Positions 27,701 through 30,700 of a DNA stretch of 36,978 nucleotides are shown piece after piece. Source of the DNA: a virus (taxonomy: Duplodnaviria; Heunggongvirae; Uroviricota; Caudoviricetes); IMG/VR virus record IMGVR_UViG_2565956727_000003, positions 1-36,978 of that record. The stretch is one strand, 5' to 3'. A program made the position numbers. The first letter of the stretch is position 1, and the number at the start of each line of letters is the position of its first letter.

Positions 27701-30700
27701 CGTAACTGTTCAACTATTGCTGCGCACGCCGCGCTCTGAAATTTTCGCCCCGCCGCGCTTATCAGGCTCTTACCTGCAAACGCCCCTTTGTTGGGGTGTC
27801 GCCAGTACGTGTTCACGCTGGGCGGGAAAGGCAGGATCAGCTTCATACTTTCAGGCCCCTCTTATGTAACCAGTGGGTTGCACGCAGCCTGGCGTTTTCC
27901 TCACCGGCAAGCAGTGAGCGGATAATCCCGACCGCCTCGCTGTCGTCGTCCTTCACCGCGGTATGAAGCGTGATGCCCCGGGCCACGCCACGCTTTATCG
28001 TGATGACGCCTTTTTTCTCCAGTGCGCGAAGATGCTCCACCGCTGCATTCACTGAACGGTATCCCAGCATGGTTGCCACCTCCTGATTGGTTGGCGGGAA
28101 GCCACGTTCTTTCTGATAAGAAATCAGCATATCCAGCACCTGCTGCTGGCATTGAGTTAACGTCGTCATGCCGCCATCTCCCTGACCAGTTTTTCTGCCT
28201 GCTGGCGAACCTGCGCCAGCGCGTTGTCTTCCGCCGTGTAATACGCGGCACATTTGGCGTTATCACCGTCAGTGAACAGATCCAGAACAAACGGGCCAAA
28301 CAGGGTGTTAATTCCCCAGAAAATGTTGTCCGGCGTGCGCCACTGATCGCCCACTTCCTTCAGTTCATGGGCTGGTTTGTTCCGCAGTTCCACCAGCGCC
28401 TGGCAATATTTATTACTCATTAAGCCCCCACGTAATTCCCTGAGAGATACCACTCTTCACCTGATGCAGCCCGCTTACTGCTTTTCCGTAAACACCGTTC
28501 ACGACGCGCCAGAAAATTGTTTCGTTCTGGCAGGGAGTGGCTTTCACGGAATGCCGCCATCCACACCGTTGCAGCACGACGGTATAAGCCCCTGGACTCC
28601 AGTTCTTCCGCCTGGCGGGTCAGGCACAAAATCACCCGCGGGTCGTTAGTGCCGACATAGAAATTGCGCACAGGTCTGGTTTCACGAACTGGTTGTGGTT
28701 CCGGATCCTGCGCTCTCTCAGTCAGGCGCGGGAAATGTCTGTGTGTATCTCCTTCACAACGGTGAGCCACACGCCCACTCTGACGTAACTTGCTTGCTGA
28801 CTGCAGAACGCGCTGCCGTGAGTAACCTGCAAAAGCATCCGCAATGTCTCCGGAAGTACACCCCGGATGGGCTTCAATGAATTTCTGAACGTCATTCAAA
28901 AGGCTCATGATCACCCCCTGAATCCTGCCGGGATCTGGCTGTAGTCCACATTGTCGTAACTGGCTTTGAAGTACGGGTCTTCGCGTTTTTCTGTGTACGT
29001 GCTGACGGACGGCGATAAGCGCAGGGAAAGTTCATCCCATTTTTCCCGCAGCTTCGACGGGCTGAGCACGTTACGGCACCAGAACGGGTCGCGGCTGACA
29101 CGGTTGTACATCTCGCAGATTTGTTTGTGGGTACGACCGTCCTGTACACACATCAGGCGAATTTCGTTTGCCCAGGCTGTCCAGTTAGGTTCTTTGGGAC
29201 GAACCACCTCGCCGTCACATTCGGCGGCCTGCTCGTACAGGGCGATGATTTTTTTCCAGAGCCACTGTGCGCAGGTCAAATCATCCTGCGTCCCCCACTG
29301 GCGCTTTTTAGGGCTGAATACAACCGCATCAGGATGGCGAGTTAAAAAATCCTGTTCAGCCGTCTGCGTGTCCGGTTGCGAAGAGTCCGGACGAGAAGTT
29401 TTTTTATCTGACGGATCATGTTTTGATTTTACTGACGGATCCCCGCCAGATTCTGACGGGTGAAAACCCGCTTTTTTGCCAGATTTCGACGCATCAAATT
29501 TTGACGGGTCAGATTTTGATGCGTCAGATTTTGACGGGTCAGAATCTGACAGTTGAGAAAATGCCGCTGCCTGAAGCTTCGCAACGTTAAGCTGATAAAC
29601 ATTCGACGCATTGCGGTTACCCTGGCGACGCGCCTTACGCGTTAACCAGCCTTCTGCTTCCAGCCGTGCGATAGCCGTTCTGACGGTACTCATCCCCGCG
29701 CCAATCTGGCGGGCAATGGTTTCAATCGATGGCCAGCACACACCTTCGTCATTACTGAAATCAGCCAGGCGGGCCATAATTGCCACGCTGGATAATTTCA
29801 TGCCTGACGCTGCGCAACCATCCCATACATAGCCGGTTAATTTAGTGCTCATGACCGACCTCTATTTCCCTGAATTTACGACGAAACTGTTCGAGCGGAC
29901 TGAAGCACTCATGCTCATAGCCTTCGCGGAGGTAGATAACCCGTTGTGTTTCCGGTTCCCAACGAATGACTCTGACGGGCACTCCGTAGTGATCTTTGAA
30001 CCAGCGGTTAACTTGTCGCAAAGGACTGTCTCCTTCTGCCGGTTGAAATCCCCCACAGCCCACTCTGCAAAGCTGTGGGTTACAATTTCCCTGTCACCTG
30101 GTACATTCACTGCATAGCAATATTCCACCTTCGCTTTTCCACCCGGTACAGGAAGCGCAATCAGTTGCGAGCGACGGTAGTGTGTTGTTAAACTGTTCAT
30201 GCGTTAGTTTCTCCACAACCAGAAGCAATCGACGCCACGACGCCCGGAGCTGCACACTCGCGGGCGTCATTACTTTCTGAAATGCAAAAGATTTTGTAGA
30301 CCAGTGCTGCATGCTCCTGCAGCTTCGAAATTGAGAGATACAGCTCGTCGTTAATTGCTGTCTTCTCATGCGGTTCCACTACACCGTCTTCGATTGCTGA
30401 ACGAATCTGTTTTGAATAACTGCCGATCTGTTCAATGACTTCCAGCAGACGCTGGTTAATATCGGCGTTGTCCACATCCTCGACGTCAGGAAGAGACACA
30501 AAGACGCCATTTGCAGACTGCGCCACAGCATCAGCAATGAAGTGAGTGCCACCAGCACGCTGTAAAACCATTGCCCATCCCAGCGGGAAAATCTGATCGC
30601 CATCTGCACGAAGGCGGTTGAATAAAGCGTTTTCTGTTACATCGAGCCAGTCAGCCGCTTCAGCGTAACCACCCGGCAACGCCGCGATAGTTTTTCTGAC

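Follow-up and report, generated by a model that had tools for sequence, protein, structure and literature searches.

An in-frame array of 11-bp dyads within the initiator gene of an SfIV/SfII-like prophage as its probable replication origin

The stretch of DNA analysed herein, which we call the window (36,978 nucleotides (nt); IMG/VR virus record IMGVR_UViG_2565956727_000003, positions 1 to 36,978), is an SfIV/SfII-like lambdoid prophage, and its minus strand carries a replication initiator gene with a tandem repeat of 15 base pairs (bp) in its middle. An earlier note, made from the sequence alone, had described the gene as an O-like replication initiator gene and the repeat as an origin embedded in it in the manner of phage lambda. 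The gene and its parts are as follows (positions in the window; aa, amino acids).

28911..29852, minus strand: replication initiator gene, an open reading frame (ORF) of 942 bp and 313 aa, composed of a winged-helix N-terminal domain, a repeat-encoded linker and a lambda-O-type C-terminal domain
29562..29852, minus strand: N-terminal winged-helix DNA-binding domain, aa 1-97 (Pfam HTH_36, GntR, HTH_29 and PaaX; weak DnaD_N and RP-C matches)
29479..29549: tandem array of five 11-bp dyads TCA(G/A)A-W-TCTGA, 15 bp apart (Tandem Repeats Finder, dyad scan and codon layout)
29539-49, 29524-34, 29509-19, 29494-504 and 29479-89: the individual tandem dyads, the last (29479-89) with 2 mismatches
29446..29456: isolated sixth dyad, TCAGAATCTGG on the gene strand, 33 bp past the last tandem copy (dyad scan)
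29394..29441: low-GC block, A-rich on the gene strand, with two GATCCGTCAG repeats; candidate unwinding region (GC scan and codon invariance)
29022..29345, minus strand: C-terminal domain, about aa 170-277 (BLASTP against the C-terminal domain of lambda O, E 2e-26, with 'WANEIRLM...NVLSPSKLREKW' aligned)

The initiator gene showed 98% identity to the 'replication protein' genes of the Shigella phages SfIV and SfII. Its product matched PF13730 HTH_36 (aa 23-70, E 4e-11, 42.9 bits against a cut-off of 25) and, over the full length, phrog_391 'replication initiation O-like' (E 2e-135), in good agreement with the O-like function that had been assigned to it. BLASTP aligned aa 70-277 of the window protein with aa 78-270 of lambda O (E 2e-26), and the order in the direction of the gene was N-terminal domain, repeats, A-rich tract and C-terminal domain. 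The lambda-style layout described in the earlier note was thus recovered, the repeat being flanked by an N-terminal DNA-binding domain and a lambda-O-homologous C-terminal domain with a low-GC tract downstream. As for the N-terminal domain, which is the presumed reader of the dyads, the profile characteristic of lambda O (phage_O_Nterm type, TIGR01610 / PF04492) matched the lambda protein (TIGR01610, E 5e-39) but not the window protein, and comparison with solved structures yielded weak winged-helix matches at best (PaaX and FadR; E >= 0.03).

Tandem Repeats Finder located the repeat at 29480..29543 with a period of 15 bp (4.3 copies, 81% matches, score 86) and, over the same stretch, with a period of 30 bp (2.1 copies, 88%, score 100), and this was the top-scoring tandem repeat of the 37-kb window. 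Together with the dyad scan, these data confirmed that the repeat previously reported at 29400-29570 is real. On the minus strand and in the frame of the gene, the units read TCTGACCCGTCAAAA / TCTGACGCATCAAAA / TCTGACCCGTCAAAA / TTTGATGCGTCGAAA and encode SDPSK SDASK SDPSK FDASK (aa 103-122), exactly the in-frame pentapeptides that had been predicted, and the unit quoted at that time, GTCAGATTTTGACGG, is present on the plus strand. The 30-bp super-period, which corresponds to the alternation of Pro and Ala in these pentapeptides, was rejected, as it was not kept among the relatives. Adjacent dyads are separated by a variable 4-bp spacer. When TCARAWTCTGA was searched with at most one mismatch, it was confined within the window to 29539-49, 29524-34, 29509-19, 29494-504 and 29446-56; the dyad scan of the window gave 10 strand-hits against 2.9 expected, a number that none of 100 shuffles reached. 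The repeat lies at 32-43% of the initiator gene length, the five tandem dyads and the one spaced dyad lying at gene nt 304-407 of 942. Counted together with two CCGTCAG half-sites in the A-rich block (29432-38 and 29408-14), they make the former estimate of about 5-7 copies a fair one.

Just downstream of the repeat, the GC content fell to 0.325 (29390..29439), the minimum of the scanned gene region 29000..29900, and the half-sites in this block are joined by GATC sites at 29438-41 and 29414-17. DnaA boxes were not detected near the array, the sole match in the window being at 24724. Between the fifth and sixth dyads, a terminator-like hairpin (CGGGTGAAAACCCG followed by a T-run; 29457-29470, plus strand) lies antisense to the initiator, and its stem seems not to be conserved in the relatives.

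A family set assembled from phage records and one genome per species comprised 72 distinct members from many Enterobacterales, with 327 repeat units in total. The tandem copy number ranged from 3 to 9, with 4 being the commonest, and exact one- and two-unit duplications were observed in near-identical E. coli prophages. Codon usage within the units was compared with that of the N-terminal domain, with the following results.

Lys: AAA 246 and AAG 0 in the 327 repeat units; AAA 131 and AAG 84 in the N-terminal domain of the same genes
Ser at unit position 4: TCA 292 and TCG 35, the other four codons never; all six codons in the N-terminal domain, AGC being the commonest
Ser at unit position 1: TCT 228 and TCC 19 only; all six codons for Ser in the N-terminal domain

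The Fisher p values for these contrasts ranged from 3e-33 to 1e-127, uncorrected for relatedness; when counted per locus, AAG lysine occurred in the N-terminal domain of 67 of the 72 loci and in the linker of 7 of them. Where other residues (F, P, I, T, A and Y) stood in place of Ser at unit position 1, the third-base T was mostly retained; it was present in 297 of the 327 units. Outside the tandem copies, the block TTT-SAC-CCG-YCA-GAA-TCT-GGN-GGG-GAT-CCG-TCA-GTA-AAW-TCA exhibited a mean top-codon frequency of 0.92, as compared with 0.54 for the N-terminal domain (Mann-Whitney p 3.5e-8), and because the one GGN codon inside it was fully scrambled, this block must be constrained and not merely young or recent. 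The sixth dyad sits in its first part (TTT-SAC-CCG-YCA-GAA-TCT-GG; codons 89-100% invariant across the 72 loci), and the A-rich block codons GAT-CCG-TCA-GTA were 99-100% invariant. The relatives also possess an extra dyad after the tandem run, at 48 bp in most of the sampled loci and at 33 bp in some, with none detected in three Proteus loci. The GATC pair (29414-17 / 29438-41) was almost invariant across the 72 relatives, which hints at origin control by methylation or SeqA.

A homologue with 49% identity kept the 15-bp period and the core CAGAATCTG, its peptide units now being SGRSE/SEPSE/SGRPE, and phiP27 carries the motif TTTGACCCTTCA twice, in two different reading frames. Dyads numbered 305 in 18.6 kb of linker versus 3 in 187 kb of flanks. 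As judged from these comparisons, the repeat is conserved as DNA and not only as a peptide, and it provides a clean example of how synonymous-site statistics can tell a DNA element from the peptide repeat that it encodes.

The company in which the array is found pointed to the N-terminal domain. In phiNP, LLS and YeP3, the N-terminal domain, the array and the A-rich block are those of the window as far as a common junction, after which a different C-terminal domain follows. Conversely, mEp460_4F5 has the window-type C-terminal domain together with DUF4222 (100% identical) and PerC-like (96%) neighbours, yet its N-terminal domain is of another kind and the array is missing. The initiator gene of mEp460_4F5 (L002, gene nt 315-440) contains four copies of GGTCAAARTG with spacings of 23, 23 and 70 bp in frames 2, 1, 0 and 1, which are candidate iterons of a second N-terminal-domain type. 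Distant relatives of the N-terminal domain (34-41% identity), as well as lambda, have their own 10-12-mers at about gene nt 280-450; in L087, L089 and L090 the copies recur at 22-23 bp and fall in mixed frames, whereas in L088 they share one frame and stand 18 or 36 bp apart. Lambda, which served as the positive control for this comparison of repeats and frames, behaved like L087, L089 and L090. The period of the window array had been called unusually short, and so it proved, at 15 bp versus 20/24/23 bp in lambda and mostly 22-23 bp in the distant relatives. Across the loci compared, the winged-helix N-terminal domain is the sole protein feature that always accompanies the array, and the C-terminal domain is exchanged independently of the N-terminal domain and the array. 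The DUF4222 and PerC-like neighbours were both rejected as binders of the array on the grounds that they stand beside the mEp460_4F5 initiator, which lacks it, and the PerC-like gene is also missing from several array-carrying phages. In a plasmid search for the module as a replicon, the matches were prophages in large records or phage-sized circles, and pKqq_SB1124_5, the one plasmid record inspected, gave no helpful replicon typing.

The locus resembles ori-lambda in several properties. Each has, in mid-gene and separating the N- and C-terminal domains of the initiator, repeats that are dyad-symmetric and contain a central A-tract, with an A-rich tract after them. The window layout is thus colinear with the annotated ori-lambda, whose iterons are at O-gene nt 349-433; the C-terminal domains are homologous (E 2e-26), and in both cases transcription comes from the early rightward operon. 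They differ in the N-terminal domain, which is of the TIGR01610/phage_O_Nterm type in lambda and of the HTH_36 type in the window initiator, and in their sites, which are iterons of 18-19 bp placed 20-24 bp apart in mixed frames in lambda, whereas the window has 11-bp dyads 15 bp apart in one frame. Unlike in lambda, the single-frame copies of the window array give a regular pentapeptide, and whereas the P gene follows O in lambda, no P gene follows the window initiator. The right arm of the lambda ori (L092 863-886), TCGTCAGAGAATTCTGGCGAATCC, resembles CCGTCAGAATCTGGCGGGGATCC at 29436-29459 (minus strand) of the window; this likeness could be due to chance or could be a trace of common origin ancestry.

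Iteron plasmids such as pPS10, RK2, F and P1 employ a winged-helix initiator that binds direct repeats beside an AT-rich unwinding region, and their iterons are usually 17-22 bp and located outside the rep gene. Compared with these, the window sites are shorter, more tightly packed and translated, and the N-terminal domain gave weak RP-C and DnaD_N matches. Of the Stx phages, 933W and P27 have origins with six lambda-type iterons and a lambda-type O, for which experimental binding and replication data are available, and iteron number varies between related phages, two extra iterons corresponding to 13 aa more of linker (PMC7466680). The window family likewise varies, by 5 aa per unit and in exact 15-bp steps over its range of 3 to 9 copies.

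From these several independent lines of comparative evidence, we consider it likely that the SfIV/SfII-like prophage replicates from this repeat and so, like lambda, carries its origin within its own initiator gene. Every part of the origin-in-initiator reading in the earlier note that could be checked computationally held, and the reading is to this extent supported. We infer that the initiator binds the array, that the A-rich block is unwound, and that helicase is recruited and replication starts there. In the proposed mechanism, the initiator would be made by rightward early transcription from the cro side, and its N-terminal winged-helix domain, probably as dimers, would bind the five dyads placed 15 bp apart and the one located 33 bp further. 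The resulting nucleoprotein complex would destabilise the A-rich block next to it (29394..29441), with its GATC sites, and the host helicase machinery would be recruited by the lambda-O-type C-terminal domain. The dyads are at the same time translated, as a Ser/Asp/Lys-rich pentapeptide linker joining the two domains. Because 15 bp is a multiple of 3, slippage would add or remove one site together with five linker residues and keep the gene intact.

In E. coli K-12, the same element coincides with a mapped site of the host LysR-type regulator SrsR (YgfI). In genomic SELEX (systematic evolution of ligands by exponential enrichment), the strongest SrsR peak was in the 'yfdO/yfdP spacer' (1206 versus 270 or less among the other tabulated sites seen); a DNase-I footprint of 66 bp contained four 11-bp boxes (SrsR box, TCAGATTTTGC), and expression of yfdONMLK was SrsR-dependent, with srsR deletion lowering and overexpression raising the yfdO..K mRNA (PMC9181523). 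That report takes the site for an operator, located between genes, of a host stress regulon, and iterons, tandem repeats, palindromes and a pseudogene go unmentioned in it (PMC9181523). In the CPS-53/KpLE1 remnant of K-12 MG1655, however, a truncated initiator copy, a pseudogene, was found upstream of yfdN (L095 2032-2739; window 29380-29619 equivalent), in which the N-terminal domain is reduced to its last ~17 codons, whereas the array is complete and the A-rich block and C-terminal domain persist. In the window, the site is part of an intact initiator gene. The four footprinted boxes mapped to L095 2615..2670 with a 15-bp spacing, equal to window 29494..29549; three of the four were identical to the window dyads and the fourth was one base off (TCAGAATCTGA versus TCAGAGTCTGA), and the surrounding 240 nt were identical at 236 positions between K-12 and the window. 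The published result can thus be reinterpreted: the top SrsR binding site is the array within a phage initiator gene that has been truncated. Orphan origins such as the K-12 copy could titrate the initiators of related incoming phages.

SrsR showed no similarity to the initiator (E 0.93), so that a shared specificity would not come from a shared DNA-binding domain. In the searched collection, SrsR orthologues were found only in E. coli records, and the best SrsR match in a chromosome-sized K. pneumoniae record was a LysR paralogue with 27.9% identity, whereas the array and its spacing are kept in phages of Klebsiella, Proteus, Providencia, Yersinia, Rahnella, Pantoea, Erwinia and others. Since Klebsiella, a host of array-carrying phages, is without SrsR, this regulator is not the cause of the family-wide conservation. 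SrsR binding is a real extra property of the array in E. coli, and it is compatible with the array being an origin. A bolder proposal, which we hold to be unlikely, is that the 11-bp dyads are recognised by SrsR as well as by the phage initiator, with SrsR acting directly on the phage replication origin and with the 15-bp in-frame lattice constituting a tunable origin. If this were true, SrsR, which rises in stationary phase, could occupy the prophage origin, block or license its replication and couple the phage to host stress; the strongest 'regulon target' of SrsR would be a fossil phage origin; and site number and linker length would change together by slippage, which would make the origin tunable.

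Several observations weigh against the origin interpretation. SrsR is the sole protein shown to bind the array (PMC9181523), and because it raises transcription downstream of the array in K-12, an operator or promoter role is real in that remnant at least. Searches with Pfam and PHROG profiles detected no helicase-loader gene of the lambda P or DnaC type after the initiator, leaving the loading step unexplained. With a spacing of 15 bp, successive sites differ by about 154 degrees in their position round the helix, a geometry that is not documented for lambda-type complexes, and for this reason a complex wrapping the DNA as described for lambda is unlikely. All of the 344 dyads of the close family share one frame (344/344), and the classic mixed-frame iteron signature is therefore missing there; in this close family the frame test is uninformative, the copies being orthologous or tandemly expanded. 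Mere physical adjacency could, moreover, explain part of the co-inheritance of the array and the N-terminal domain.

These points lead to the alternatives. If the array were mainly an operator for a transcription factor at an internal promoter of the downstream genes (SrsR in E. coli, or the initiator elsewhere) and not an origin, the strongest SrsR SELEX peak, the 66-bp protection with four dyads and the srsR-dependent yfdO..K mRNA of K-12 would all be readily accommodated. The upstream promoter of the phage is gone in K-12, where the SrsR effect was seen, and a relaxed search found just past the sixth dyad a candidate -10 element, TAAAAT (29426..29431), whose accompanying -35 is poor, as in promoters that depend on an activator. 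The standard sigma-70 scan of 29200..29900, however, returned no promoter, and the TAAAAT hexamer is moderately conserved at most. In addition, SrsR orthologues occur in E. coli records only of the searched collection, whereas the array is conserved in phages of many other genera, and mEp460_4F5 has the same downstream genes without the array, all of which makes the operator explanation improbable. We also give little credence to the possibility that the dyads are initiator sites for autoregulation, copy control or titration, with strand opening and the start of replication located elsewhere in the phage. Initiator binding would then rest on the same comparative evidence, but the window contains no other dyad cluster or other strong tandem repeat, and the dyads are, as in lambda, immediately followed by a block that is A-rich, low in GC and strongly constrained.

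The remaining explanations concern the cause of the constraint itself. A low-complexity SDxSK peptide linker generated by slippage, devoid of any DNA-level function, would agree with the Ser/Asp/Pro/Lys-rich composition of the linker, its variable length of 3-9 units and the exact unit duplications in near-identical E. coli prophages. It is very hard to reconcile with synonymous positions that are almost invariant across genera in genes whose N-terminal domain drifts freely, with a DNA core that outlasts peptide change and with one phiP27 copy lying in a different frame; the pure peptide repeat was rejected as contradicted by the synonymous-site data. Nor does it seem at all probable that the constraint derives from a selected RNA hairpin or DNA cruciform of the palindromic array, even though the array folds far better than its shuffles (z -4.66 as DNA and -4.80 as RNA) and a miRNA hairpin model of Rfam gave a sub-threshold match (30.7 bits against a gathering score of 97); the Rfam search of the array returned no known RNA family above threshold. 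Among 24 distinct four-unit members, pairing amounted to 81.7% versus 81.9% in the shuffled sets, with 335 of 500 shuffles reaching the observed value, and covariation in the same members to 0.087 versus 0.089. The spacer columns freely broke the pairs, and the most constrained block (29394..29441) was unpaired in the centroid structure. A selected hairpin or cruciform was consequently rejected, since tandem palindromes fold in this way as a by-product. A second gene overlapping the array, in a different frame or on the opposite strand, is a possibility to which we assign a practically negligible chance; it finds some basis in mechanical ORFs at 29423..29590 (plus strand) and 29429..29611 (minus strand) that span the repeat. 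No alternative frame, however, was stop-free over the array and block in all members (33 of 72 in the best case and 0 of 72 for three frames), and the overlapping ORF was rejected because the alternative frames are not open across the family.

With the array taken as the probable origin, the analysis indicates where a whole prophage family would start its replication. The module of N-terminal domain and array was found in 2006 of 5426 complete E. coli genomes, in up to 4 places per genome, and the family, to which the serotype-converting Shigella phages SfII and SfIV belong, is widespread in Enterobacterales. Neither the SfIV genome paper nor literature searches yielded a description of an origin or iterons for the SfII/SfIV/yfdO family. 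The geometry of this embedded origin would be a different one, with an 11-bp dyad, a 15-bp in-frame lattice and a variable copy number. The evidence supports a system that follows the logic of lambda, but with another DNA-binding domain family, a shorter, tighter in-frame lattice, variable copies and an overlap with a mapped host-regulator site. Control of a phage origin by a host regulator, or a decoy or titration effect of orphan origins, thereby becomes directly testable.

The genes on either side of the initiator gene are the following.

28420..28914, minus strand: PerC-like gene, yfdN homologue (PF06069, phrog_1324), in the 'P position', with a 4-nt overlap with the initiator stop codon
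28166-28453, minus strand: phage Dam methylase fragment of 95 aa (PF05869), the sole remnant of a gene that is intact in relatives, right after the initiator module
29842-30063, minus strand: DUF4222 protein of 73 aa (Pfam E 3e-19), the ORF that PGAP annotates
29862-30200, minus strand: ORF of 112 aa (phrog_1170), which is orf40 in SfIV

The absence of the methylase is also noted in the SfIV genome paper. In KpF5 and P7641, the same C-terminal domain is directly followed by a methylase gene. Upstream of the initiator, the 73-aa and 112-aa ORFs overlap on the same strand in different frames, and both match families. The DUF4222 gene was located just upstream of the initiator, overlapping the initiator start, in 9 of the 16 phage and genome loci searched, with identities down to 33%.

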